From the IMG/VR virus record IMGVR_UViG_3300032167_005013: a DNA stretch of 64,000 bases; one strand, written 5' to 3'. The notes beneath the pieces are model-generated. The model was not told where the DNA came from, made no database searches, and was given only the letters and a program-made list of their open reading frames with translations. Position numbers and translations under genes: made by a program. Below, in pieces: positions 1-37,651 of this stretch; positions within the stretch are counted from its first letter, which is position 1; every line of letters begins with the position of its first letter. This stretch comes from a virus (Duplodnaviria; Heunggongvirae; Uroviricota; Caudoviricetes).

Positions 1-150
1 AGGAGAATGGTTGGGGTGATGGTATTCCCGCGAACCATAGGTGAGGAGACTAACGTATTTCCCTGCGGATAACAGATGCTGCAGGTCCTCATGAGACCTA
101 CCTTAACAATTGTGATGGAACCCCCATCCTACTGAAATGGTCTCACTAAT

Positions 151-225
151 GCGAGTGTAGCTCAGTTGGCAGAGCGTCAGTTTCCCAAACTGAAGGTTTC
201 GCGGGTTCGAGTCCCGTCTCTCGCT
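151..225 (+). tRNA. tRNA-Gly(CCC)
   Basis: Cloverleaf; anticodon arm tcagt-ttcccaa-actga; T loop TTCGAGT; U73. Confidence 0.9.
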
Positions 226-233
226 CAAATAAC

Positions 234-318
234 GGCGACATGGTGTAATGGTAGCCACGCAGGATTTAAGTCCCTGTGGCCCGAAGGGGCCGTGTCGGTT
301 CGAGTCCGACTGTCGCTA
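234..318 (+). tRNA. tRNA-Leu(TAA)
   Basis: ggcgaca/tgtcgct acceptor; loop tttaagt; long variable arm. Confidence 0.88.
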
Positions 319-424
319 CAAAAAATTACTTAATATAGGTACTCTTTTGAGTACATTATTATAACTTTTTATTTTAACGTACTATTTATTATTACAAATA
401 AATTAAACTACATTAATAAAAAAT

Positions 425-514
425 ATGAGAAATCTCCAACATACAAATTATTCGTATCCCAAATCTCTCAATTTTGGGCTCGATTATCGTATAGTGGAGG
501 ATTTAGACGAATAG
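425..514 (+). CDS. Putative leader peptide MRNLQHTNYSYPKSLNFGLDYRIVEDLDE (29 aa)
   Basis: ATG at 425 after an A-rich leader; TAG-TAA double stop; overlaps alternative-pairing segments of the downstream terminator. Confidence 0.6.
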   Translation: MRNLQHTNYSYPKSLNFGLDYRIVEDLDE

Positions 515-549
515 TAAATTTTTAGATTTATACTCATATTCATGATGCT

Positions 550-590
550 ATCCTCCGGTTTAATAAAAAACTTGGAGGATTTTTTATTTT
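550..590 (+). terminator. Intrinsic terminator / attenuator hairpin upstream of the tRNA run
   Basis: atcctcc...ggaggat stem followed by a T tract; its 3' arm TGGAGGATTT is repeated at 495-504. Confidence 0.7.
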
Positions 591-605
591 GGCACGGTAT
601 TTGTA
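590..605 (+). promoter_or_regulatory. sigma54-type -24/-12 motif
   Basis: TGGCACGGTATTTGTA about 23 nt upstream of tRNA-His. Confidence 0.6.
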
Positions 606-628
606 TATATGTATTTTGAAAATATATA

Positions 629-701
629 GAGGATGTAGTTCAGTTGGTAGAATATCACATTGTGGCTGTGAGGGCCATGGGTTCAAATCCCATCATTCTC
701 C
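629..701 (+). tRNA. tRNA-His(GTG), no genomic G-1
   Basis: tcaca-ttgtggc-tgtga arm; C73; base at -1 (628) is A. Confidence 0.9.
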
Positions 702-716
702 CAAATTAAAATAAAT

Positions 717-811
717 GGAGGCGTACCCAAGTGCTTGAAGGGGACGGACTTGAAATCCGTTAGGACGGTAACCACTCCGTCGCGTGGGTTGGAATCCCAC
801 CGCCTCCTCCA
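717..811 (+). tRNA. tRNA-Ser(TGA)
   Basis: acgga-cttgaaa-tccgt; long variable arm; encoded CCA; T loop TTGGAAT. Confidence 0.88.
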
Positions 812-846
812 ATACAGTTGTAAGTAATCTGCGAAACTTTCAAAAA

Positions 847-928
847 CGGAATGTGATGGAACTGGTAGACATGCGACACTTAGGATGTCGTGCCTCCGTG
901 CGTAAGGGTTCGAGTCCCTTCATTCCGA
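847..928 (+). tRNA. tRNA-Leu(TAG)
   Basis: cgaca-cttagga-tgtcg; cggaatg/cattccg acceptor. Confidence 0.9.
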
Positions 929-934
929 CAATAT

Positions 935-1010
935 ATGGTAATAGCTCAGTTGACAGAGCGCTTGGTTTGGGACCAAGAGGCCGCAGGTTTGAGCCCTGCT
1001 TACCATACCA
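935..1010 (+). tRNA. tRNA-Pro(TGG)
   Basis: cttgg-tttggga-ccaag; encoded CCA. Confidence 0.85.
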
Positions 1011-1014
1011 AAAT

Positions 1015-1090
1015 GAGGTTGTAGCTCAGGTGGTAGAGCGGGAGCCTGAAGAGCTCCGCGTCGGTGGTTCAACTCCATCCAACCTCACCA
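1015..1090 (+). tRNA. tRNA-Phe(GAA)
   Basis: ggagc-ctgaaga-gctcc; encoded CCA. Confidence 0.9.
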
Positions 1091-1165
1091 AAATAAAAAT
1101 ATTTTTGGTATTGTTAAAAACAATCACTATATTTGCAAATGAAAAGAAAACGGTAAACAAAATAT

Positions 1166-1241
1166 TCCCAAGTAGCTCAGTAGGTTTTAGAGCAACGGTC
1201 TGTTAAACCGTGGGTCGGTGGTTCGAATCCACCCTTGGGAG
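1166..1241 (+). tRNA. tRNA-Asn(GTT)
   Basis: acggt-ctgttaa-accgt; tcccaag/cttggga; G73. Confidence 0.9.
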
Positions 1242-1310
1242 CGAGAAGAGGTTTTTCTTATTTTAGACTTCTGGTACAAAAAGAAAATAAGATGGTGCTC
1301 CAAGCAATAT

Positions 1311-1393
1311 GCCGAAATGGGACAGTGGTTGACTCCACCTGATTTGTAATCAGGCTCCGCAAGGACTCGTCAGTTCGAATCTGACTTTCGGCT
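1311..1393 (+). tRNA. tRNA-Thr(TGT) with long variable arm
   Basis: gccgaaa/tttcggc acceptor; cctga-tttgtaa-tcagg; 14-nt variable region with tcc-gcaa-gga hairpin. Confidence 0.75.
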
Positions 1394-1395
1394 CA

Positions 1396-1560
1396 AAAAC
1401 AAAACCTCAAGTTGGGGTGCCTCATAACATAGTCGTTCAAAATGGAGAACGGCCAAAGGGCAAGAATATAGATAGAGAGGCCTCACGTTCAAGCGGATAA
1501 GGCGTTTAACTTATCAACCTCTCACAAACGTGACTACGGAAATCGTTTGGGTTTTGTTTT
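1396..1560 (+). ncRNA. Structured RNA of unknown family
   Basis: 11-bp terminal stem aaaacaaaacc/ggttttgtttt plus several internal helices. Confidence 0.45.
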
Positions 1561-1565
1561 ATATT

Positions 1566-1727
1566 GGGTCAGCGCCGCAGTTGGAGAGGCGGGACAGACT
1601 GTAATAACAGAGTAAACTGTCACAAATCGCTGGTTGGAAATTGGTAGGAAGTATCGAGGTATCGTACACCTCTCCAATCACAATCTGTTGTCGTAAGGCT
1701 GAGTAGGTTCGATTCCTACCTGACCCA
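1566..1727 (+). tRNA. tRNA-Tyr(GTA) with a 78-nt anticodon-loop insert (1604-1681 or 1605-1682)
   Basis: gggtcag/ctgaccc acceptor; acaga-ctgta...aa-tctgt; Tyr-type variable arm and T arm intact. Confidence 0.85.
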
Positions 1728-1801
1728 CTATAAAATTAATAATGTAAAATATAGTATTTTTTAGTTCGATATACTATTTATATATAGAAAAACTAAAAAA
1801 T

Positions 1802-2587
1802 ATGATTACAAATGAAAGAAAAATATTTTACATAAATTTAATTAAAGATTCTTTTTCTTTACGAGAAGTTTGTTTAAAAGCGGGAATAGTTGTTACTACA
1901 GGCAATTATGATACTTTAAAAAGACTAATTAAAGAGGAGAATATTGATATAAGTCATTTTAAAAGACAAAATGTAAATAATCAAACTCATCATGAAATTG
2001 ATTATTTTTTACAAAAAGGAAGTAACATTGGGTCGTTTAGATTAAAAAATAAACTTTTTGATAATGGTTTAAAAGAACGTAAATGCGAATGTTGTGGAGG
2101 AACGGAATGGATGGGTAAACCTATTAATCTTCAACTACACCATATTAATGGAGATAATAAAGATAATAGATTGGAGAATCTTCAAATACTTTGCCCAAAT
2201 TGCCATTCTTATACAGAGAATTACTGCGGGAAAAACCAAAAAATCAATATAAAAGAAAAAGAAAGAATAATAAAAAAACGGACATATATAGATGTAAAAC
2301 TTTTACAAGAATGTTTAAATGAAACAAATGATTTAAATATTATTGGTGAAAAACTTAATAGAACACCAAAAACAATTAAAAAATATATAAAACAATATAA
2401 TTTAAAAATAGAAACAAAAGAAAAAAAACCAAAATATGATGTTAATTTAATGTTTCAATTAATGAAAAAATATAAAAATTATACCAAGGTTGGTGAAAAA
2501 ATGGGGATTAGTGATAATGCTGTGAAAAAACGTTTTATCAAACTTGGTTATCCATCTAATATTAAAGATTTATTAAATTCAATATAA
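1802..2587 (+). CDS. HNH homing-type endonuclease with HTH-like C-terminus
   Basis: CECC...LQLHHINGDNKDNRLENLQILCPNCH motif. Confidence 0.85.
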   Translation: MITNERKIFYINLIKDSFSLREVCLKAGIVVTTGNYDTLKRLIKEENIDISHFKRQNVNNQTHHEIDYFLQKGSNIGSFRLKNKLFDNGLKERKCECCGGTEWMGKPINLQLHHINGDNKDNRLENLQILCPNCHSYTENYCGKNQKINIKEKERIIKKRTYIDVKLLQECLNETNDLNIIGEKLNRTPKTIKKYIKQYNLKIETKEKKPKYDVNLMFQLMKKYKNYTKVGEKMGISDNAVKKRFIKLGYPSNIKDLLNSI

Positions 2588-2598
2588 TATATGGATTC

Positions 2599-2672
2599 GC
2601 TCTCAAAGCATTAAAGTGATGCACGAAACTTTTAATTTCGGGAAGAAGGGGCGGTACCTTCTGGGAGCACCA
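2599..2672 (+). tRNA. tRNA-Lys(TTT) with atypical D and T loops
   Basis: gctctca/tgggagc acceptor plus ACCA; cgaaa-cttttaa-tttcg; T loop GGCGGTA. Confidence 0.75.
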
Positions 2673-2824
2673 AATTTTTAACATAAAAAGCATATCTAAT
2701 AGGAAAAATTGCCTCCTTAAGATATGAAACCATATACGGAAGTTGCGTTTGGCAGACAATAGGACCAACAACCTATCCAAAGTACACGGATACGGAAAGA
2801 CATTATGGAATGTTAAATAAATAT

Positions 2825-2907
2825 AGGAATGTAACTCAGTTGATAGAGGCTTCGCTGAGATAATATCAAAGGCCAAGAGGACGGTGGTTTGAGCCCATCC
2901 ATTCCTA
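2825..2907 (+). ncRNA. tRNA-like RNA (Pro-like body) with an 18-nt anticodon loop
   Basis: aggaatg/cattcct acceptor; T arm ggtgg-tttgagc-ccatc; anticodon not assignable. Confidence 0.55.
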
Positions 2908-2914
2908 CAAATTA

Positions 2915-3048
2915 TGTTAGTTTATTGCAGTATATTGGAGACTGCAGCGAATGTTATTTCGTCTTCGTTTGAGCAACAGACCGTTAGGGTGCACACAATG
3001 ACAACGGTGTTGCGAGAAGTATGGAGGTTCAATTCCTTCAACTATCAC
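2915..3048 (+). ncRNA. tRNA-like RNA with extended D stem and very large variable domain
   Basis: tgttagtt/aactatca acceptor; ttgcagt/actgcag stem; T arm ggagg-ttcaatt-ccttc. Confidence 0.55.
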
Positions 3049-3056
3049 TAAGGTAT

Positions 3057-3203
3057 TGTGGCGTGGTGTAACGGTAGCACTAAGGATTTTTTAAGGCGTG
3101 GTTTCCGTAATAAACTATTGGTACGGGTCTTATGAAGTTAAGTAGAGCAAAACTACCCTGTATCGCGGTTCCTTCAGTCAGAGTTCGAATCTCTGCGCCA
3201 CAA
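3057..3203 (+). tRNA. tRNA-Gln(TTG) with a 76-nt insert inside the anticodon (3091-3166)
   Basis: tgtggcg/cgccaca acceptor; aagga-tttt[insert]ggt-tcctt; cagag-ttcgaat-ctctg T arm. Confidence 0.75.
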
Positions 3204-3338
3204 CTAAAATGAAATAAATTTGATAATATCAATATTTATATACTATATTTGCAACATAAAGGGATGGCTATATATGATGAATGATAGGAATAGCCTACAA
3301 CATATATGACACCTCCCTATTTTTAAAAAGAAAAATTA

Positions 3339-3421
3339 AGGAAACATACAGCAAAGTTTTTGGATAATAAAATTAATTAGACTTTAGTTTTTAGATAGTT
3401 CAATTCTGTCACTGTTTTCTG
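3339..3421 (+). ncRNA. Small RNA with ACAGCAA motif and a T-arm-like hairpin
   Basis: aggaaaca/tgttttct terminal stem; gatag-ttcaatt-ctgtc. Confidence 0.45.
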
Positions 3422-3477
3422 TCTTAATATAACCGTGGTTGCAGTCAAATCGGGATATAAATAGCGACTGCATATAT

Positions 3478-3550
3478 TGCGGCGTGTAGCAGTGGTAGCT
3501 AAGCGGTCTCATAAGCCGACGGTCGGTGGTTCGAATCCTCCCGCTCGCAA
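3478..3550 (+). tRNA. tRNA-Met(CAT), initiator-like body
   Basis: ctcataa loop; body resembles fMet; bulged acceptor stem. Confidence 0.75.
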
Positions 3551-3564
3551 CGAGTCTACTCACA

Positions 3565-3703
3565 GAGATGTACTCTTGGTTGGTCGCACTACCGTAAATG
3601 CGATACAATTGATGTTGAACAATGGTCTTGGAATAACCTGCAGCAAGTACAAGGCAACAACACTGGTAGTTAACGTGACATTAGCCGGTGAAGAGTATAT
3701 TTC
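3565..3703 (+). ncRNA. Structured RNA of unknown family
   Basis: gagatgtactctt/aagagtatatttc terminal stem; more GC-rich than its flanks. Confidence 0.35.
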
Positions 3704-3817
3704 AACATTTGTTGAATATTTTAATTTTTATTTATATTAACATTCAGTATCAGGACGGGTGTGAACCTCTCCTGATATTTTTTTCTATACACTATGGCAC
3801 GATTTTTGCTATCTCTA

Positions 3818-3864
3818 TTATTCGAAAATACTTTTCTCATTATTCGAAAATACTTTTCTCATTA
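3818..3864. repeat. 22-bp direct tandem repeat, 2 copies
   Basis: ttattcgaaaatacttttctca occurs twice in an AT-rich noncoding gap. Confidence 0.8.
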
Positions 3865-4242
3865 TGATTGTTTAACCTTCATATATTATAGTGGCAGTAA
3901 GCAGAAAAACGGTTTCTTAATACTGAAGTATAGTCTCCATTGTACCTATTTATCACCATTTAGAATTATTCTAATTAACAATCTATAAGCAAAAACATAT
4001 AAATAAATTATAATTTAGCACAACATTACATGGAGAAAAAATAAAAATTGTAAGCAAAATACTCGATAATGCTTACAATTTATTAAAAATGCGTATGTAA
4101 TATAGTGTATATTTCTATATGTGTGGAAAAATTAAAAAAATTTTGAAAAAATCCGGGGAAAATTATTACAAAGAACAGTTTCTTTTGTTATTTTCAATCA
4201 ACTTCCACAAACGGATAATTCGTTAAAATCTTAGTAAGATAA

Positions 4243-5280
4243 TTAATATGTTATAAGTTTCTCTACTTGTTCTATTGTAAGGTTTATCAAAATATTATAA
4301 ACATGTTCTTCCATTTTTCCACGATATTCTTCAGTTCTTTTAACGATTTGTTTTCTTTTACAATCAAGGTAAACTTTATAAGCTTCTTCTTCAGTATCAA
4401 ATTCATTTTTTTTACCTTCTAAAAAAGAGTCAATAAAATTTCTTTCCACATTCAACTTCCATTTACCTGTTTCTGAGTTATAAGTTGTTCCTGTATAGTA
4501 CCCGTTTTTAAGTTGTTGTTTTGGCCTTCTTGCAAAGATAATTCCAATCCTATTAGGAATAAACACAATATTATCAACAGTATAATTATTAATATTGTCA
4601 TCAAGATTTAAGATTAAATCATTAACAACCAAGATTTCATTGTAGGTATCTTGTGCTTTTTGATATTTTTCACAAAAGTCTTCTTGTTTTATATCAAATG
4701 TTTTATTTTTCAAATAGGCATAATTATTAAGGTTAGATTTAGCCCTGCTCATATATGATTTATAAGCGTTTTTTGCTGCTTTGTTATATTTGCCATTGAT
4801 TTTTGTTGTTTTTATTGGGGTCATTGTATTATACCCTTCTTGTAATGTTTTAAACACATCACAATAAAATGCTTCTCGTTCATCAAGAAGTTCTATAGGA
4901 CATATCTCCATTATATTATAATTCCATTTCCATGGGTCAACGTCCTTTCTTGCTTTTTCAATTTTACTTCCCGCATATGGATTATTTCCGAGAAATTGTT
5001 TGTATCTATTTCTCAAATTCTCGGTTTTTCCTATATATTTTTTATAATCATCTTCGGGGTTCACAAGCATGTATATTCCTGATGTCTCAGGTATTGTATT
5101 AATGATAGATTCTTTATAAGACTTGATACTACTTTCATTTATGATGTTTTTCTTTTTCTTCAACTCATTTTTCAATACTTTATTTTCTTCAGCATAAATC
5201 AAATTTTCATGTATTAATGCATTTTCTTTATCAGAAAATTCAGTACCATCTATAGTTTTATATTTTAAAATTATTTCCAT
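4243..5280 (-). CDS. GIY-YIG endonuclease
   Basis: SGIYMLVN...KKYIGKTENLRNRY...ERE...GYN; likely start MEIILK at 5280. Confidence 0.8.
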   Translation of the reverse strand: MEIILKYKTIDGTEFSDKENALIHENLIYAEENKVLKNELKKKKNIINESSIKSYKESIINTIPETSGIYMLVNPEDDYKKYIGKTENLRNRYKQFLGNNPYAGSKIEKARKDVDPWKWNYNIMEICPIELLDEREAFYCDVFKTLQEGYNTMTPIKTTKINGKYNKAAKNAYKSYMSRAKSNLNNYAYLKNKTFDIKQEDFCEKYQKAQDTYNEILVVNDLILNLDDNINNYTVDNIVFIPNRIGIIFARRPKQQLKNGYYTGTTYNSETGKWKLNVERNFIDSFLEGKKNEFDTEEEAYKVYLDCKRKQIVKRTEEYRGKMEEHVYNILINLTIEQVEKLITY

Positions 5281-5287
5281 AAAAATA

Positions 5288-5722
5288 TTATATATCGAAG
5301 TATCTATACAGGAGTTCACATGTGAAGTCTCTATCGAAATTATTATCTTCGACAAGGTCATTTAGTTTCTCCACGGCCTTATAGATTTTGTTTATTCTTT
5401 TATCGGCATCGCATCCTTTAACCATCCAATTAAATTCTTCTATGAATTCATCAACATCCTTTTCTTCTTCAATTACGAAATCAGGTAAAATGAATTCGTC
5501 GTTATATGCTGATGTTGGTCCATCAACCGTTTCAACGTTGTTAAGTCCTCCTGTTATGGTAAAGGTATTGGGGTTTTCGTCAAAGCATTCAATGAAAAAC
5601 GTCATTGATTTATGATAGACATAGAAGAAATCGTCCATACCTTCAAAGTTATATTTATATAATTTCTTCAGTTTATCTTCCAATTGGAGATATAGTGGGT
5701 TTGTTTTAAAATCTGTTGTCAT
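5288..5722 (-). CDS. Hypothetical protein
   Basis: ORF in a tightly packed minus-strand run. Confidence 0.65.
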   Translation of the reverse strand: MTTDFKTNPLYLQLEDKLKKLYKYNFEGMDDFFYVYHKSMTFFIECFDENPNTFTITGGLNNVETVDGPTSAYNDEFILPDFVIEEEKDVDEFIEEFNWMVKGCDADKRINKIYKAVEKLNDLVEDNNFDRDFTCELLYRYFDI

Positions 5723-5725
5723 AGA

Positions 5726-6346
5726 TTACCTTTTAAATTTATTAACAGTTTCCCTGATTCGTCTTTCCTTTTCAACGAATTGGCAGACTGCCTCATACAT
5801 GAGTTTATTAATCAGCCTATCCCATTGTCCAACAAGCGGATTCTCATAATACGTTCCTGAGATATTATTTTTCTCCCATCTTATTACCATACCATCATCG
5901 GGATTGTCCCATCCTCTATCGACTCTCACGACAAGTCCTTTCTTCAGCATGAAGGTCGTGAGGTATAAAAGTTCTTCTCTCTGTTCGTATGTAAGTTGTT
6001 TATCAAAGGAGATATAGGCGTGGGTTCCTTTATTGTCTCCTTGGCAGGAGAACTTTGTTTTATATCCATGCAGGTTAAGTTCCATTATGATATCATATAT
6101 GAGTTCATCAACGGTATGTAGTTTATCCTCTTCAACAACATAGAATTTATGGGAATATCCATATTCATAGTCAAAATTATTTCGGAAGAAATCTCGCAGA
6201 TTATTATCGTTATTGATATCATATTTCTCGGCTATTTCCTTTGCGTTCTTACAGAAAACAAAGAAATCTTTCATCGTCATATCATCATGTGTTATCATAC
6301 TTTTTATCATTTGAATTGTTTTACCGCAAATATCGTGCCATATCAT
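5726..6346 (-). CDS. Hypothetical protein (TKFSCQG motif)
   Basis: ORF; true start probably downstream of the internal sigma54-like motif at 6325-6340. Confidence 0.6.
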   Translation of the reverse strand: MIWHDICGKTIQMIKSMITHDDMTMKDFFVFCKNAKEIAEKYDINNDNNLRDFFRNNFDYEYGYSHKFYVVEEDKLHTVDELIYDIIMELNLHGYKTKFSCQGDNKGTHAYISFDKQLTYEQREELLYLTTFMLKKGLVVRVDRGWDNPDDGMVIRWEKNNISGTYYENPLVGQWDRLINKLMYEAVCQFVEKERRIRETVNKFKR

Positions 6347-7681: not shown

Positions 7682-8107
7682 ATGGAGAGATTTTACAGAG
7701 TAGAATACAATGGTGTCATATTGCGCCACGACAAATGTCAGGATGAAGAAGGATATTATGGTACATCCATTATGGTGCGTAATGATGATGACAGATGGGA
7801 AATTGACATTGACAAGCCCACATTCACAATCGGACGTTATTGCATGGGAGATGAAACCATTAGGAAGAACATTGCTGACGGGAAATTTTTCATCAATATC
7901 GAAGATGCCATTGAAAAGAGCAAGCCATTATGGGAAAAAGCATTTGGAAGTCCTGATGATTTATGGGAAGTCATTGAGATATTTGATGATGTTGAAATTA
8001 AAGTAATCAGCAAACCCATGAGCAAGAGATTGGCCAAGGAGGAAAAATCAAAATACAAGAACAGATATCTTGTACATTACGATATCAGAAAATATAAGAA
8101 CAAATAA
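7682..8107 (+). CDS. Hypothetical protein
   Basis: ORF preceded by sigma54-like motif TGGCATGGTTTTTGTA at 7641-7656. Confidence 0.7.
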   Translation: MERFYRVEYNGVILRHDKCQDEEGYYGTSIMVRNDDDRWEIDIDKPTFTIGRYCMGDETIRKNIADGKFFINIEDAIEKSKPLWEKAFGSPDDLWEVIEIFDDVEIKVISKPMSKRLAKEEKSKYKNRYLVHYDIRKYKNK

Positions 8108-11160: not shown

Positions 11161-11293
11161 AATATGAAAATTATTTTGTTCTACGGACTTGCTTAAAGGA
11201 ACAACAGTATAATACTTACTATATAGACATATATTAAAAGTCGTGATGATATCCCCTTCTTCGTTTTATATGGCTATTTATAAAATAAAATCA

Positions 11294-12482: not shown

Positions 12483-14033
12483 TTATTCCTCATCATCAGC
12501 ATACCCCTCAAGCATGTCCCCCGTGATGACACCCTTATCCATATCCTTCTTTTCCTGTTCAAAATAGAGGTCACTCTTAATCTTGAACGCCTCCTGAATA
12601 GGGTCATTTTCAATTCTGATGACAAGTCCTTCTCTCCAAACCTTATTCTTGCAAAGAGGCTCCTTAAGGTCCATACCGAACTTCTCCGAGTCAGTCTTCA
12701 TCCTGCGAACAAAGTTCTCATGCCAATGTTCCTCAGTTGAAAGGTCGGGGTAGATATCCTTTGCAGGGCCATGATACATCAGCTGCAGAGGGAAAATCTT
12801 ATCTTCAAGGTCAGGGTAAGTCTCAATCAGCCACTTGGTATATCCAATTACATCTGTGATTTCAAAATCCTCATACTTACCGGTTGCGGAGTTGAACTCA
12901 GTCACACGATAAATCATGAGCTTGTTCTCGCCCTTCTTACAACCATAGTCATATACCTTACCACCACGGGTAATGATGCCTGTTTCTGAATTAGGTACAT
13001 ATCCAAGAATTTCTCCGTAGATAATCATTCCATGGTCAACCTTACCCTTAAGAATCTCATACCACTGTGGGTAAACTGCATCAAGGCCTGTCGGATAATT
13101 GTCACCGGTCTTACCAACCTTTGAAGTACTGCTCTTAGGAGCCTCGACATAAGCATTTCCTGAACGAATGACATTTCGTGAACTGCAGACATCCTCCCAA
13201 TCAATATCCCATGTTCTCCACTTATCAGGCATCAACATGAATGCCTTAAGTATTAACTTATTAAGGAAATTGAAACGAGTCTTTGGGAGACGTGGGGTTC
13301 TCGTCTGAATATTACCGAAGATTATTGATGTTCCGTCCAACTTAAGAGAGATATCAACGACATCCTCAGGCTTGATTTTCCAAGCATTCCTCTCAAGGCT
13401 CTGTGTGTCGTAGTGAAACTGCCACTGTCCCTCGACAATCCTGTCAATCTTGGCAATGGTCTTCTTATGTCTCTTATAATGCTTTCCCTTTCCTGCTGAG
13501 TGCTTTCTCTCCTTGATTCGAGGAACATATGGCTTTGAGAAGAGGACACCATCAACGGTATCAAATTCAGTCCCAATATAATCCTCAAGATTCAACTTCT
13601 CAACACCCGGAAATGCGAGTGCCATTGCTCTCTGAGAGAAGAGGAAACCAAATGAAGGCACTCCGCCAAGACGAATCATCTTCACACGCCCATACTTATT
13701 GAAGAATCCTACCTTCCTCTTGGCTTCGTCCTTCTTATCCTCGCTCATCAGTTTTTCAACCTCCTCGTAGTTGACATTAAGTTGTCTTTCCCCAATTTCA
13801 AAAAGGTTGTTCTTTGAAAGGAAATCTGTGTTAAGTTCTGATTCGTTTGCTGCATAGAAAAGGATATCACCCTCGTGGCATTCGTCCTTTCTGACAACCA
13901 TTGTAAAGTTCTCAACAACAGTTACTCCGATTGAATCATATCCCGGAATATCCTTAACCTCTCCAATCTTCACGATTGTGGTACAATATTCCTGCTTAAA
14001 CTTTTCTGATTTTGTAAAAATGTTCTTTGCCAT
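12483..14033 (-). CDS. ATP-dependent RNA ligase (Rnl2/DRB0094-like) with N-terminal OB-like domain
   Basis: Nucleotidyltransferase motifs KLDGTS, IYGEI, REGLVIR, FKIKS. Confidence 0.8.
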   Translation of the reverse strand: MAKNIFTKSEKFKQEYCTTIVKIGEVKDIPGYDSIGVTVVENFTMVVRKDECHEGDILFYAANESELNTDFLSKNNLFEIGERQLNVNYEEVEKLMSEDKKDEAKRKVGFFNKYGRVKMIRLGGVPSFGFLFSQRAMALAFPGVEKLNLEDYIGTEFDTVDGVLFSKPYVPRIKERKHSAGKGKHYKRHKKTIAKIDRIVEGQWQFHYDTQSLERNAWKIKPEDVVDISLKLDGTSIIFGNIQTRTPRLPKTRFNFLNKLILKAFMLMPDKWRTWDIDWEDVCSSRNVIRSGNAYVEAPKSSTSKVGKTGDNYPTGLDAVYPQWYEILKGKVDHGMIIYGEILGYVPNSETGIITRGGKVYDYGCKKGENKLMIYRVTEFNSATGKYEDFEITDVIGYTKWLIETYPDLEDKIFPLQLMYHGPAKDIYPDLSTEEHWHENFVRRMKTDSEKFGMDLKEPLCKNKVWREGLVIRIENDPIQEAFKIKSDLYFEQEKKDMDKGVITGDMLEGYADDEE

Positions 14034-18390: not shown

Positions 18391-18614
18391 TTCTCAAAAT
18401 CTTCCGGATATTCAACATAAACCCATGCCCAAACATCGTCAATGATAAAATCAATATCGGGTTCGGGAAAATTATAAAAGGCTTTTCTTCCTTTTTCCTC
18501 AGAGTAAATACCATAATAGAACCAACTGCCGTCACGAGTAAAAAGAACCCGCTGCCCCTCATAAGGAACTTCTTCCTCAGTCAGGAACCATGTCAAATGT
18601 GTAACACTATTCAT
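18381..18614 (-). CDS. Small hypothetical protein
   Basis: ORF with likely start MTMNSV, overlapping the upstream stop. Confidence 0.5.
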   Translation of the reverse strand: MNSVTHLTWFLTEEEVPYEGQRVLFTRDGSWFYYGIYSEEKGRKAFYNFPEPDIDFIIDDVWAWVYVEYPEDFEKWR

Positions 18615-19692
18615 CGTTAAATTTTTTAATAAATTTCTCTGCTTTGTTTCGTTTTTCCATGTATTTTTTACGTCGGAATTCATTGGTTTTTTCAATGTTT
18701 TCCCTTATCTTGTCATTATGCTTCCTGCATTTCTCATAGGTATTTAATTCTCTTGCCCAATCTTCAATCGAAGCCGCAGAAATATCTTTCTTTATTGCCT
18801 TGTACCCATCATAAGGTGAAAGAATGTCGACAGTATCATCAATGATATATTCCCAATCCCATCCGTTATTGTTTGAAAATTTTATATTGAACCAATTATC
18901 TGTTTCGGATTCAACATTACCGTTCGCACGTGGATTTACAGCAAGTTCCTCAAGTGTATTTCCTATCCAACCCTGACCATTCCTATGATAACCGTTCATT
19001 GTAAGGAAATCAATAGACGATTTATCATTGAATTTATAACCTGTTTTCAATGTCAAGGCCTGTGAACTATTAAAACCGAAATCTCTAAAACCCGCTGTCT
19101 GCTGATGTCCTGCCCTTACATGTAATCCCCATCCATTCTGAGGAAGCATATTATATACTGCAGTTGCCTTAAATGAATTAAAACTACCGCCACCAAAATA
19201 AACATATGAGTCCTGTGGTTTATGAATATTGACCGATTCCAAAAGGATTCCTCCGGCCACACCCGCAATTCCATTATATGATGAAGCAGTACCCTTTTCT
19301 ACCCTAACTGTCTGCATCGAAGACAAAAGGTCAGGACTGTTAGCAAAATAAGCACCATAGTCCTCAGCCTCATTCCATGGGCAACCATCAAGAGATACAT
19401 TTATACGGGTTTGGTCAAGTCCTCTGATTCTAAAGTAACCGTAACCAAATTCTGTACCATTGTCATTCAATGAAATAATTGATGGCATCTTACTAAAAAC
19501 ATTTGATGGTTCCTGTCCGTAATTGGTTTCAGTAAGCGTTTTAATATCAACTACCGAACTTACTGTTGTTGAACTACTATAAAATGAAGATACGACAATT
19601 TCGTCAAGCGCCACAACCGTAGTATCTGATTCCTGTGCAAACGTAATAATCGCAATAAATGCAGAAATAAATGCCAAAATAAATTTTCTCAT
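18607..19692 (-). pseudogene. Truncated TonB-dependent receptor (signal peptide, plug, first barrel strands) fused to a phage protein C-terminus
   Basis: LDEIVVS TonB-box region; FRIRGLDQTRINVSLDGCP plug; after ~18890 the sequence resembles ORF 15198-15611. Confidence 0.7.
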
Positions 19693-21057: not shown

Positions 21058-22008
21058 CTAATCTTTCTTCTCAGCAAAATCCTTAGGGAGATACCCTCTA
21101 TTAATGAATTCATCCATCAATGGTACAGCCAATTCTGCAGCCTGTGGATGGGGTTTTCCTGTTGTACCAAGAGCTCTCAAATTGAAGAAATTTTTCCAAT
21201 CACTAATAAATGCAGTTTTAATAAGAGGTGAAGAAATTGCACAAGGTAAAACAGTTCTTGCCTCTTCAGCCTTCCATCCAAACTGATTTGTTAGCGTACA
21301 ATACGACCATTCACATGCTTTCAATGCAAACATCCAAGCACACACATCATCCATTGGTCCTACCCCATATTCAAAATCAATTACGCATCTACAAAAATCA
21401 TTTATACTATAATCCTTAAGAGTATTGATTTCATCTATTCTATCAAGCATCCATACAGGAATGATATACTTAATAGAACCACCACCAAACTTCTCTTTTG
21501 TGAATAGCACATATCTTGTACTCTCCCTATTGAACGATGCAACTCTGTGGCGTAGGAACTCTTCACCTGTAAACCTGTCAATTTGAAACCTTACCTGATA
21601 TCTTCTCTCATGAAACTCAGTGGGTTCACACCAATATTTCAAGTCATCCATCCAACCATTCTCAAAAAGAACTCGGAGATTGGTGGTTACATACATATAA
21701 TCATTGTCTGATGTACACTTAGAATATTTATTATGTTGATATTTGTCAAGGACACAACCAAGATATTCAATATCAATATTATTCACATAATCATAATCAA
21801 GTGGCGCTTTAAGATATACTGTACCATGTTCTAGTGGTGCCCCATGATTAGATTTCATCAATCCATTGCAAAACTTCTCTGCAGTTCCCGGAGCCATCTT
21901 ATCCTGAGAACCATAACATATTCTTCCCGGGAGTTCCGCTGCTTTATACATACCCTCAAGACCCGGCTCCTGTTCAATAATTTCAAATCCTGCTACTAAA
22001 AATTCCAT
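21058..22008 (-). CDS. thyX: FAD-dependent thymidylate synthase
   Basis: HGAPLEH; RHRVASFNRESTRY; EARTVLP. Confidence 0.92.
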   Translation of the reverse strand: MEFLVAGFEIIEQEPGLEGMYKAAELPGRICYGSQDKMAPGTAEKFCNGLMKSNHGAPLEHGTVYLKAPLDYDYVNNIDIEYLGCVLDKYQHNKYSKCTSDNDYMYVTTNLRVLFENGWMDDLKYWCEPTEFHERRYQVRFQIDRFTGEEFLRHRVASFNRESTRYVLFTKEKFGGGSIKYIIPVWMLDRIDEINTLKDYSINDFCRCVIDFEYGVGPMDDVCAWMFALKACEWSYCTLTNQFGWKAEEARTVLPCAISSPLIKTAFISDWKNFFNLRALGTTGKPHPQAAELAVPLMDEFINRGYLPKDFAEKKD

Positions 22009-30499: not shown

Positions 30500-30670
30500 T
30501 AAAGATGTAGTGTCAAGCACCGTATGTAAAATTCTAAGAAAATCTACCTTTCCTATATTTTACTTCTTATTTCAACGAACCACTGCTTTTTAGAAGGCAT
30601 TGCCTCGGTCATCCACAGTTAGGTTCTCCATAAGCGTATATTCGGTGCTACGGACACCTATTATTCTTTC
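30500..30670 (-). ncRNA. Putative TnpB omegaRNA scaffold plus flanking guide
   Basis: Overlaps the tnpB 3' end and the right end; expected location from TnpB biology; boundaries approximate. Confidence 0.5.
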
Positions 30671-31789
30671 TCCCTCTAATAAGATATTCATCGCTGCATT
30701 TATATCCCTGTCATGATGTTCGCCACATTGTGGACATGTCCATTCCCTGTCACTTAACTTCAAATCATGTTTCTTATATCCACAAACTGAACATGTTTTA
30801 CTGCTTGGATAGAATCTATCAACAAATATTACTTGTTTTCCGTTATTGAATGCTTTATCAACAAGTATTGATTTAAATCTATAAAATCCTACTTCTTGTA
30901 TCGCTTTCGCTAACTTATGATTCTTTAACATTCCACTAACATTTAAGTCTTCCATGAAGATTACATCATAATATATAAGCAATTCATTTACTACACTATG
31001 AATATAATTCTCTTTCTGATTGTTTAACTTCTCAAATGCCTTTGCAAGTTTGATTCTTGCTTTATTTCTGTTATTAGAACCTTTTTGTTTCTTTGATAAT
31101 TGATGTTGGAGTTTTGCTATCTTCTGTTCTTGTAATTTATAGAAATGTTTATTTTCAAACACTTCACCATCACTTGTAATTACAAAATCTTTAACTCCTA
31201 AGTCAATACCAACATGTTCATCAGTTAATTTGAATTTAACAACTTCTTCATTTGGTAACTCAATTAAGATAGATAAGAAGAAATTACCACTCTTGGTTTT
31301 CGATAAGGTAGCACTTCTTATTCCATCACGATATTGTCTGAGTCTGTTGTGATTCAAATCAGAACATCTGAAACGAATATCTTTTAAAGGTTGTGTCAAC
31401 GTTATTTTTCTTGTTTCAAATGTATTCTTCTTTGAAATCGCTTCAAGTGGGAATAACGCTGACTGTTTATCTTTTTTACTTTTGAATTTTGGGAAACCAT
31501 TATGTTGTTTAAAGAACTTCTCATAAGCAGATAGCATCTGCCTTATTGACTGTTTCATTATCTTTGTGTTTTCTTCTTTCAACCATGAGTATTGTTCATC
31601 CTTCAATAGTTCATTATGAAAATACTTTGATAAATCAGTTAAACCTAATGATTTCTTATTTTCAGTATATTCTTGTTGTTTACGAGCAAGTGTTTGATTA
31701 TAAACAAAACGGTAACACCCCAATACTTTATTCAGTTTCAGTTCTTGCTCCTTATTTGGATATAATCTTATTTTAATTGCTCTTAACAT
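30590..31789 (-). CDS. tnpB: TnpB RNA-guided endonuclease
   Basis: KIRLYPN; GIDLG; EDL; SSKTCSVCG...CPQCG..HDRDINAA. Confidence 0.95.
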   Translation of the reverse strand: MLRAIKIRLYPNKEQELKLNKVLGCYRFVYNQTLARKQQEYTENKKSLGLTDLSKYFHNELLKDEQYSWLKEENTKIMKQSIRQMLSAYEKFFKQHNGFPKFKSKKDKQSALFPLEAISKKNTFETRKITLTQPLKDIRFRCSDLNHNRLRQYRDGIRSATLSKTKSGNFFLSILIELPNEEVVKFKLTDEHVGIDLGVKDFVITSDGEVFENKHFYKLQEQKIAKLQHQLSKKQKGSNNRNKARIKLAKAFEKLNNQKENYIHSVVNELLIYYDVIFMEDLNVSGMLKNHKLAKAIQEVGFYRFKSILVDKAFNNGKQVIFVDRFYPSSKTCSVCGYKKHDLKLSDREWTCPQCGEHHDRDINAAMNILLEGERIIGVRSTEYTLMENLTVDDRGNAF

Positions 31790-36454: not shown

Positions 36455-37651
36455 TTATTCTACTCCAACGAGATACTTATAGACCTCAATTTCATGTGGG
36501 TCTCCCATTGCTTTCGTAGGCACATCGGATAACTTAACACAATTATACACAGGCTGTCGAGGATTAACCTGAAACTTGGTAAGTTTGCAGACGATATTCA
36601 TCGGTTTGATTCTGACACCACAATCAACATCATAAAGATTATTCGACAAATTGGTTCCAATTCCAAACGATACTTTTATCCTGTTTTCAAAATGTTTCTT
36701 CAATTCAGCACACTTCTCAAAAGTAAGGGCATCTGAAAAAACAATTGTCTTGCTCATAGGGTCAATACCATATGATTCATATTTCTTGATTATCTTTTCA
36801 CCGAACTCAATAGGGTCTCCCGAGTCATGACGCACTCCATCGAACAACTTTGCGTTCTTCCTTGAAAACTGTCTCAAGAACTCGTCAACTGTATATGTAT
36901 CAGTGAGGACTGTACCGAGATTACCGTCATATACCTTACTCCAATTTTCCATCACAATATGATTTGCCTCCTTAGGCGAAGTTACTGCTGCAGTTGCCAT
37001 AAACATTTCATGGGCCATTGTTCCCATAGGCTTCAAACCATATTTCTTCGCAAAATAGACATTGGATGTTCCCACGCAATTAGCGCATTTTTTTGAAAGA
37101 TACTCACACACAGCGTCTTGTACATCGAAAGAATAACGTCTGCGGGTTCCAAACTCCATGAATTTGAAATCTTCGGTCATTGCAATTTGACAGTTCTTTC
37201 TGAGAGGCTCATGAACCTGATAGTTAAAATCTCCCAAATTTATTGCATAATATTTGTAATAGATTTCAGATACTGTTGCAAGAATAGGAATTTCATATAA
37301 TGAAACTTTATATATCACATCAGTGACATTAATATGAAGATGCTGTTCCTCATCAAGCCATGCGTTAATCTTATTATGGTCAAAACGGAATGTCTTAAGC
37401 CATTCCCAGTAATGTCTTGGGATATATGGAATGTTTTCAATACACCACTCGCACTCTTCGTCAGTGAGGGCAAGGACATCAAGGTCCATAAATGCATTTT
37501 GTAGTGTAATCAGAAACATCTGATTAAATTTCATGCCATTTCGGTCCTTAAATGTAAATGTTCCTCTTGCTTCAGGATACATTTGCTGATAATAATAATT
37601 CATTGACAGTTTATATAAATCATTGTCCAGTATCGATTTAATTGTACTCAT
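36455..37651 (-). CDS. pncB: Nicotinate phosphoribosyltransferase
   Basis: DNDLYKLSM; EFGTRRRYS; GTSNV; GTMAHE; GVRHDSGDP; FGIGT. Confidence 0.93.
   Translation of the reverse strand: MSTIKSILDNDLYKLSMNYYYQQMYPEARGTFTFKDRNGMKFNQMFLITLQNAFMDLDVLALTDEECEWCIENIPYIPRHYWEWLKTFRFDHNKINAWLDEEQHLHINVTDVIYKVSLYEIPILATVSEIYYKYYAINLGDFNYQVHEPLRKNCQIAMTEDFKFMEFGTRRRYSFDVQDAVCEYLSKKCANCVGTSNVYFAKKYGLKPMGTMAHEMFMATAAVTSPKEANHIVMENWSKVYDGNLGTVLTDTYTVDEFLRQFSRKNAKLFDGVRHDSGDPIEFGEKIIKKYESYGIDPMSKTIVFSDALTFEKCAELKKHFENRIKVSFGIGTNLSNNLYDVDCGVRIKPMNIVCKLTKFQVNPRQPVYNCVKLSDVPTKAMGDPHEIEVYKYLVGVE

Follow-up and report, generated by a model that had tools for sequence, protein, structure and literature searches.

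A candidate leader-peptide attenuator ahead of a phage tRNA gene block, with leader codons that sample the phage's own tRNAs

Why phages carry tRNA genes, and how these genes are timed and dosed, is an open question. It takes a concrete form in a 64,000-nucleotide stretch of a Caudoviricetes genome (IMG/VR record IMGVR_UViG_3300032167_005013; the whole stretch is referred to here as the window), in which a short ORF and an intrinsic terminator at 425–590 precede a run of tRNA genes. An earlier note, made from the letters alone, had proposed that this segment is an attenuator that senses depletion of the very tRNAs it controls. Does it make transcription of the tRNA genes depend on translation of the ORF? 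Based on codon statistics, folding models, and related loci, we conclude with moderate confidence that 425–590 is probably a ribosome-mediated (leader-peptide) transcription attenuator placed before a block of phage tRNAs.

The tRNA array and its setting

The window starts within the tRNA array of a large phage with a genomic G+C content of ~35%. Contigs that match it fully or at 99.95% identity, the window phage itself being uncultured, are present in assemblies from JGI, ENA, and Logan; one such contig measures 349,824 bp. Relatives are located in the JGI datasets 3300018878, 3300018427, and 3300022660 as well as in several ENA/Logan assemblies. In the coordinates of locus L001 (window position x corresponds to L001 x + 8199), the array begins 3′ of a DUF7448 gene and runs in the order Met(cat), Gly(ccc), Leu(taa), a spacer at window positions 320–628, and then His, Ser, Leu, Pro, Phe, Asn, Thr, and Tyr. 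The tRNAs described here lie on the + strand. The Gly(ccc) and Leu(taa) genes occupy 151–319, upstream of the leader, while the genes 3′ of the terminator, His(gtg), Ser(tga), Leu(tag), Pro(tgg), Phe(gaa), Asn(gtt), and Thr(tgt), occupy 629–1394 with tRNA-His starting at 629. The remaining array (1566–3549, +) extends from Tyr(gta) at 1566–1728 through an HNH endonuclease gene embedded in the array (1802–2587, +) to further tRNAs, the last of which is Met(cat) at 3479–3549.

The earlier note had assumed ten non-Met identities downstream of the leader, and these hold to different degrees. His, Ser, Leu, Pro, Phe, Asn, and Thr are ARAGORN/Rfam calls. The Tyr identity requires a 78-nt insertion, and the Lys identity stems from a non-canonical Lys(UUU)-like cloverleaf at 2599–2675 (+), with the anticodon loop CUUUUAA, an unusual T loop (GCGGTAC), and an encoded CCA end, which was missed by Rfam and by ARAGORN in its default mode. 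Gln depends on a splice point: the insertion-bearing tRNA at 3057–3203 (+; U1-A72) acquires the anticodon UUG, UUU, or UCG according to where splicing or excision is placed, and a comparison with the tRNAs of a related locus (L009, described below) left its identity ambiguous. Two further tRNAs, at 2825–2907 and 2916–3048 (+), are uncertain.

Short insertions in or near the anticodon loop recur in this array, with 78 nt at 1566–1728, about 10 at 2825–2907, about 40–60 at 2916–3048, and 76–79 at 3057–3203. For group I introns, these insertions are too short. The tRNA at 1311–1394 is called as Thr(UGU) by ARAGORN, yet has a long variable arm and thus the type II body usual for Leu, Ser, and Tyr tRNAs. 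Between two tRNAs, a 165-nt element at 1395–1560 is closed by the inverted repeat AAAACAAAACC/GGTTTTGTTTT and has no Rfam match. The spacer between tRNA-Met and tRNA-Gly (window 1–150; L001 8137–8349) is ~76% conserved in the distant relatives L007 and L017–L019, a conservation that exceeds expectation for a spacer, and for this reason it may be a structured RNA.

Bacteroidota-type promoters (TTTG-N18-22-TAnnTTTG) are in excess on the gene strand of the window, with 20 observed vs 3.6 expected, which makes Bacteroidota a plausible host phylum for this phage. A GIY-YIG endonuclease gene lies at the array edge (4243–5361), and an IS200/IS605-type transposase homologue is found further on (30590–31789). 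The phage also codes for a TonB-receptor plug-domain protein (18607–19692), a nicotinamide phosphoribosyltransferase homologue (36455–37651), ThyX (21058–22008), and an RNA ligase (12483–14033). Array content is mosaic among close relatives, three of which (L006, L010, and L012) diverge directly 3′ of the same DUF7448 gene. In several unrelated IMG/VR phages (L057, L079, and L085–L087), DUF7448 genes likewise adjoin tRNA arrays, which suggests that this domain of unknown function has a role connected with tRNAs.

Leader codons and competing hairpins

The leader ORF (425–514, +) comprises 29 codons and a TAG stop, encodes the peptide MRNLQHTNYSYPKSLNFGLDYRIVEDLDE, and begins with an ATG in an A-rich, SD-less start context of the kind typical of Bacteroidota. 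Its existence ahead of the terminator and tRNA run agrees with the earlier reading. So does the composition of residues 3–17, which use exactly N, L, Q, H, T, Y, S, P, K, and F, although the Gln tRNA behind this list is uncertain. The match further extends past residue 17, where the note had ended it, to codon 18 (GGG), corresponding to the upstream Gly(ccc), an unusual tRNA, and codon 19 (CTC). The putative sensing codons are therefore codons 3–19 (431–481, +), reading N L Q H T N Y S Y P K S L N F G L.

Codons were scored against the 13 anticodon species of the array under relaxed wobble, with U34 tRNAs reading whole four-codon boxes. Under these rules, and with the Gln tRNA counted despite its uncertainty, codon 1 and codons 3–19 are decodable by phage tRNAs (18 of 19 codons), and 12 of the 13 species are represented among them; the exception is codon 2 (AGA), for which the phage has no matching tRNA. 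The match breaks off at codon 20 (GAT), which has no phage tRNA, and only two of the ten codons from 20 to 29 are decodable; codon 27 (TTA) matches the upstream Leu(taa). Compared with a background of 124,836 stop-free 19-codon windows drawn from six frames of ~160 kb of the same phage group, at least 18 of 19 decodable codons together with at least 12 of 13 species were found in six windows, of which two are the leader itself and four represent one antisense locus in two relatives. When only tRNAs found by default ARAGORN were used, 27 of the 124,836 windows matched as well as the leader. Under relaxed wobble, then, the claim that the leader samples codons of the phage's own tRNAs describes a match that is rare in background windows. 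Under strict wobble the window leader is no outlier relative to background and the match is not significant; the codons that need whole-box reading by U34 are CTC (three times), CCC, and TCT. A run test at the amino acid level is by itself significant at only ~1% for this leader.

The intrinsic terminator (550–590, +) consists of a 5′ arm at 550–556 (region 3), a loop, a 3′ arm at 574–580 (region 4), and a T tract at 581–590. A G-U pair and an inner GUUU/AAAC helix lengthen the hairpin ATCCTCC/GGAGGAT, whose predicted energy is −12.9 kcal/mol, and both hairpin and T tract are confirmed as the note had described them. The 10-nt sequence TGGAGGATTT at the terminator 3′ arm (573–582) is present a second time inside the ORF at 495–504 (+; region 2), as an exact copy from which 496–502 can pair with 550–556 as an antiterminator. 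Because the + strand of the 64 kb window contains no more than 19 GGAGG sites and the spacer is G-poor, the presence of two such copies 78 nt apart is not ascribed to chance. Folding of the region is more stable than that of shuffled sequences, with z-scores of −3.0 for 425–590 and −3.7 for 320–628.

The effect of a ribosome on this pairing was modeled by making 30 nt around each A-site codon unavailable in an RNA ending just before the terminator 3′ arm. The predicted probability of the antiterminator (496–502:550–556) is 0.34 without a ribosome, 0.71–0.98 with the A site at codons 1–19, and 0.00 from codon 20 to the stop codon. In these models, the isolated 2:3 hairpin (−14.3 kcal/mol) is as stable as the terminator (−12.9 kcal/mol), and the duplicated arm is thus predicted to be able to act as an antiterminator, as had been proposed. 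The constrained folding that the note had called for as a check also places the boundary at which stalling ceases to favor the antiterminator at codon 19, the codon at which the tRNA-matched run stops, so that the predicted stalling-competent codons 1–19 coincide with that run.

The remaining part of the proposed 1:2/2:3/3:4 geometry fared less well. The 1:2 pairings are present in the letters but hardly populated in the models (~0.0 for 461–470:495–504 and 0.1 for 449–455:507–513). In minimum free energy structures, the predicted partner that partly sequesters region 2 without a ribosome is instead 430–438 (+; region 1), with a probability of ~0.2–0.3. When the whole sequence is folded at equilibrium, the terminator wins at every ribosome position (P=0.95–0.97); the switch must therefore be kinetic, as in trp, and from the models we infer a kinetic competition between terminator and antiterminator. 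An Rfam cmscan of window positions 1–6000 at E≤1 found tRNAs only, with no T-box or other leader family.

Relatives and a second leader

Two diverged copies of the element were found, one (L014) 97% identical over the spacer and the other (L024) 91% identical over window positions 1–721. In both, 425–514 carries 0 substitutions, compared with 7–8 changes in the flank at 320–424 and 14–15 in tRNA-His, where a swapped anticodon stem is included. The whole 425–549 block is invariant, the ORF is the most conserved stretch of the region, and changes in the terminator are confined to the loop, leaving the stem intact. Conservation of the ORF in relatives, against which the earlier note had staked its claim, is thus found in L014 and L024, where the block of identity could reflect either constraint or recent exchange. 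As the ORF has no substitutions in the only relatives found, the window locus yields neither synonymous/non-synonymous nor covariation evidence.

Elsewhere the module is wholly absent from phages with a 65–68% identical DUF7448, in which protein genes follow tRNA-Leu(taa). Searches of INPHARED phages with blastn gave matches at the tRNA level only, and exact-pattern scans of IMG/VR for the leader, tRNA-His, hairpin, and terminator gave no match, as did a search for related loci with the GIY-YIG protein and a first metagenome scan for the hairpin. Among 80 DUF7448 loci from distant phages in IMG/VR, no leader homologue and no outlier run of array-decodable codons was found. On an unrelated metagenome contig recovered in scans for the terminator motif (L107 632–795; Ga0102829_1013707), a 33-codon ORF encoding 19 different amino acids is followed by a GCCTCCAG/CTTGGAGGC terminator and then by tRNA genes in an array, whose full set lies beyond this short contig.

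A second leader was found on an ENA contig, L009, where a DUF7448 neighbor 90% identical to that of the window is accompanied by a different, larger array of 19 tRNAs with 18 anticodons. A 40-codon leader ORF (5508–5630) upstream of this array is followed by a terminator (5667–5707) with a T tract, a consensus promoter, an 84-codon ORF, and the tRNA array. The L009 ORF has no alignable similarity to the window leader. All of its codons 1–25 are decodable by L009 tRNAs under strict wobble, and 28 codons are under relaxed rules. Of the 18 anticodons, 17 are used in this run, and Lys, Arg, Gly, and Ser are each represented by both isoacceptors. Elsewhere in the L009 locus no decodable run exceeds 14 codons; in the other background sequences (the window and five related loci, ~127 kb), the maximum is 16 codons for the window and 18 for 63 kb of relatives. 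The expected number of runs of 25 in the L009 locus is 0.002, no other window among 100,651 reaches 25 of 25, and the codon match has a p value below 1e-5.

Folding models of L009 point in the same direction. The sequence TGGAGGT (5594–5600) inside the ORF is complementary to the terminator 5′ arm, and the resulting antiterminator is predicted at −23.4 kcal/mol vs −13.4 kcal/mol for the terminator. In masked folding, this antiterminator forms with the ribosome at codons 1–25, and the probability of 2:3 pairing falls to 0 at codons 27–36; it also forms by default (P=0.94). Each leader fits its own array: with the L009 tRNA set, 31% of background windows score as well as or better than the window leader, and with the window tRNA set, 49% equal or exceed the L009 leader. 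The co-variation of leader composition with tRNA content that the earlier note had predicted is therefore borne out across two leader types and a few variants.

Seven variants of the L009-type peptide, all 40 residues in length, are present in the protein collection; they were found as called ORFs, a source in which broken copies would be missed and which is therefore biased towards intact frames. The most divergent variant, L105, differs at 17 of 123 ORF bases (14%) and keeps its frame through a compensated −1/+1 indel. This indel gives V-G-Q, in which Q is encoded by CAG, the codon of the sole tRNA (Gln-ctg) unused by the L009 leader, and the substitutions at residues 1–27 all stay within the tRNA set. 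Across the 40 residues there are 7 amino acid changes vs 5 synonymous ones. Over the 131 nt that separate the stop codon from the next ORF, L105 does not differ from L009, so that terminator and promoter are 100% conserved, and the antiterminator is retained. Our confidence that the L009-type leader is an attenuator is higher than for the window locus.

These comparisons bear on a different reading, in which the element would be an independent small gene, encoding a 29-aa micropeptide or a structured small RNA with a terminator of its own, whose matched codons would secure translation when host tRNAs are scarce, with no antitermination involved. The invariance of 425–549 in relatives, the better folding of the region compared with shuffles (z −3.0 to −3.7), and the constant 40-aa length of the seven L009-type variants would all fit such a gene. 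However, a functional peptide would not be expected to sample the tRNA species almost completely, the window and L009 peptides have no sequence in common, and amino acid substitutions in the L009 type are frequent (the 7 vs 5 given above). A search of representatives with the L009 peptide found no wider family, and no Rfam family matches the element, Rfam searches of L009 and L105 having returned tRNAs only. Nor would such a gene account for the copy of the terminator arm inside the ORF, or for where this copy lies with respect to the matched run, and we consider a small gene of this kind quite improbable.

Another question is posed by the sequence between the terminator and tRNA-His. A strong promoter-like motif, TTTGGCACGGTATTTGTATATATG, lies at 588–611 (+) and shares bases with the T tract. 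It is one member of a recurrent class: the 24-nt motif TTTGGYA-N3-TWTTTGTATATNTG has seven sites in the window vs 0 expected (588, 11128, 12414, 15891, 19721, 27205, and 43357) and is probably one temporal promoter class of the phage. The promoter at about 590 to which the earlier note had pointed as a potential source of all tRNA transcription thus proved to be a genuine member of a recurrent motif class. With this motif between terminator and tRNA-His, the array need not rely on read-through alone; the tRNAs probably have a promoter of their own at 588–611, and read-through would then be an added, conditional input, or could even act on that promoter.

Upstream, no match to TTTG-N19-21-TAnnTTTG was found in 320–424 that could serve as the leader's own promoter, and the nearest consensus promoter is at the array start, at about 7710–7745 in L001. 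The hairpin GTACTCTTTTGAGTAC at 339–354 (+), 3′ of tRNA-Leu(taa), is a repeated intergenic element of the phage group, with copies in L001 (including 5048–5083 and 8039–8054), L006, L007 (2665–2680), L012, L016 (several), and L017–L020, located before tRNAs and between protein genes and with conserved flanks. It is possibly a processing or regulatory site, or a weak terminator, upstream of the leader.

The simplest account of this layout would be a plain boundary between two transcription units, with 550–590 ending the Met/Gly/Leu unit, 588–611 starting the His unit, and both the ORF and the duplicated arm being non-regulatory. A recurrent-class promoter directly 3′ of the terminator, with the same layout in L009, is what such a boundary would look like, and the equilibrium models, in which the terminator always forms, are in line with it. 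Near-same terminators also arise independently in unrelated genomes: motif scans of metagenomes and genomes recovered five unrelated terminators, with near-identical sequences in unrelated bacteria, so the similarity of the window and L009 terminators (27 of 29 alike) is not proof of homology between the two loci. A mere boundary would nevertheless give no reason for the codon/tRNA match, for its replication in L009 where the tRNA set is another one, for the agreement in both loci between matched run and stalling boundary, for a 10-nt copy of the arm in a spacer in which G is scarce, or for the ORF being the most conserved stretch. We regard it as quite unlikely.

A translation-sensing switch could also have a different output, with read-through occluding or stimulating the 588–611 promoter, or with the leader controlling the processing or stability of a tRNA precursor. 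In favor of this, the −33 element of the promoter motif shares bases with the T tract in the window as well as in L009, and L009 and L105 are 100% identical between stop codon and promoter, with 14% of bases differing in the ORF. Such a switch would need the same leader and antiterminator logic plus an extra step, whereas a simple attenuator explains the same data; we consider it unlikely.

A proposed mechanism and its relation to known systems

Under the favored reading, leader-peptide attenuation of the tRNA block, we infer a translated ORF, a kinetic competition, a direction of regulation, and a physiological trigger that would fit together as follows. A transcript entering from upstream would carry the 29-codon ORF; as no leader promoter was identified, its source is probably the tRNA-Met/Gly/Leu unit. 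Within the first 19 codons, almost all tRNA species of the array would be needed, most of them once or twice. Slow decoding of any such codon would hold the ribosome at codons 1–19 and leave region 2 (495–504) free to pair with the terminator 5′ arm (550–556) before the 3′ arm is made, resulting in read-through into tRNA-His and the genes that follow. With fast decoding, the ribosome would reach codons 20–30, which mostly lack matching phage tRNAs, and would cover region 2, so that the terminator could form and the transcript would end in the T tract. The net effect would be negative feedback on tRNA supply, superimposed on the input from the 588–611 motif. Cleavage of host tRNAs by anticodon nucleases, which the earlier note had placed behind the switch, is a possible trigger and a conjecture; simple autoregulation of tRNA supply accounts for the design equally well.

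If this is true, tRNA supply is actively sensed and regulated in infection, and attenuation is able to monitor tRNA species instead of amino acids. The signature of a leader codon roster followed by a terminator could then predict which tRNAs form a regulatory unit, and the element would represent a natural multi-codon stalling sensor for synthetic biology.

A similar design was examined in a published, cultured phage, Caulobacter phage RB23 (MZ574433.1). Its ORF at 11178–11276 of locus L111 contains 13 consecutive codons strictly decodable by the seven following tRNAs; such a run is expected 2e-4 times in the whole locus, where the second-longest comprises six codons. As judged by eye rather than computed, a terminator-like hairpin lies 3′ of this ORF, and a near-copy of the hairpin 3′ arm lies inside it. 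The other array of this phage, which covers eight amino acids, is preceded by the annotated gp135 (L111 3324–3443), in which 32 of 38 residues belong to these eight. RB23 thus resembles the window in having a mini-ORF composed of the array's codons, together with a hairpin and an in-ORF arm copy seen by eye; it differs in that its sequence is unrelated to the window leader and its host belongs to another phylum. As RB23 is cultured, the mechanism is directly testable there.

That roster-type leader attenuators serve large phages across host phyla as a general means of autoregulating each tRNA block is, in our judgment, an evenly balanced proposition. On this proposal, loss or shortage of any one species, through host rarity, shut-off, or anticodon nucleases, would open the terminator, and the leader would evolve with tRNA gain and loss.

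Among known systems, the closest are the enterobacterial amino acid attenuators, including trpL, hisL, leuL, and pheL, some of which are multivalent: thr senses Thr and Ile, and ilvGMEDA senses Ile, Val, and Leu. The window element shares with them a short ORF upstream of an intrinsic terminator, an antiterminator that uses the terminator 5′ arm, read-through favored by a ribosome stalled at regulatory codons, and codons that reflect the product of the controlled genes (for pheL, reviewed in PMC3082878). Unlike these systems, it sits in a phage, controls tRNAs rather than enzymes, and would sense tRNA species rather than an amino acid. Its leader lists about a dozen different codons, mostly once or twice, where enterobacterial leaders contain runs for only one to three amino acids. 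In the window the anti-antiterminator (1:2) is weak, L009 lacks it, and a promoter follows the terminator.

Leader-peptide attenuation also reaches the translation apparatus in E. coli, where pheST, encoding phenylalanyl-tRNA synthetase, is under such a control. As in the window, the target is a gene of the translation apparatus rather than of biosynthesis; in contrast, a single amino acid is sensed through runs of Phe codons, and the target is a protein gene. T-box riboswitches are alike in that transcription read-through is set by the state of a particular tRNA, and differ in binding uncharged tRNA directly, without translation, through a conserved Stem I and T-box sequence. In Bacteroidetes, a candidate Trp leader attenuator, the Bacteroid-trp motif, was reportedly described by Weinberg et al. 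in 2010. It suggests that leader-peptide attenuation exists in the presumed host phylum; unlike the window element, it belongs to a host amino acid operon and uses Trp codons only, and it has no sequence match in the window. Literature searches returned no description of leader-peptide attenuation of tRNA genes. Relative to published knowledge, the element would therefore represent a known mechanism, leader-peptide attenuation, in a new form, acting on tRNA genes.
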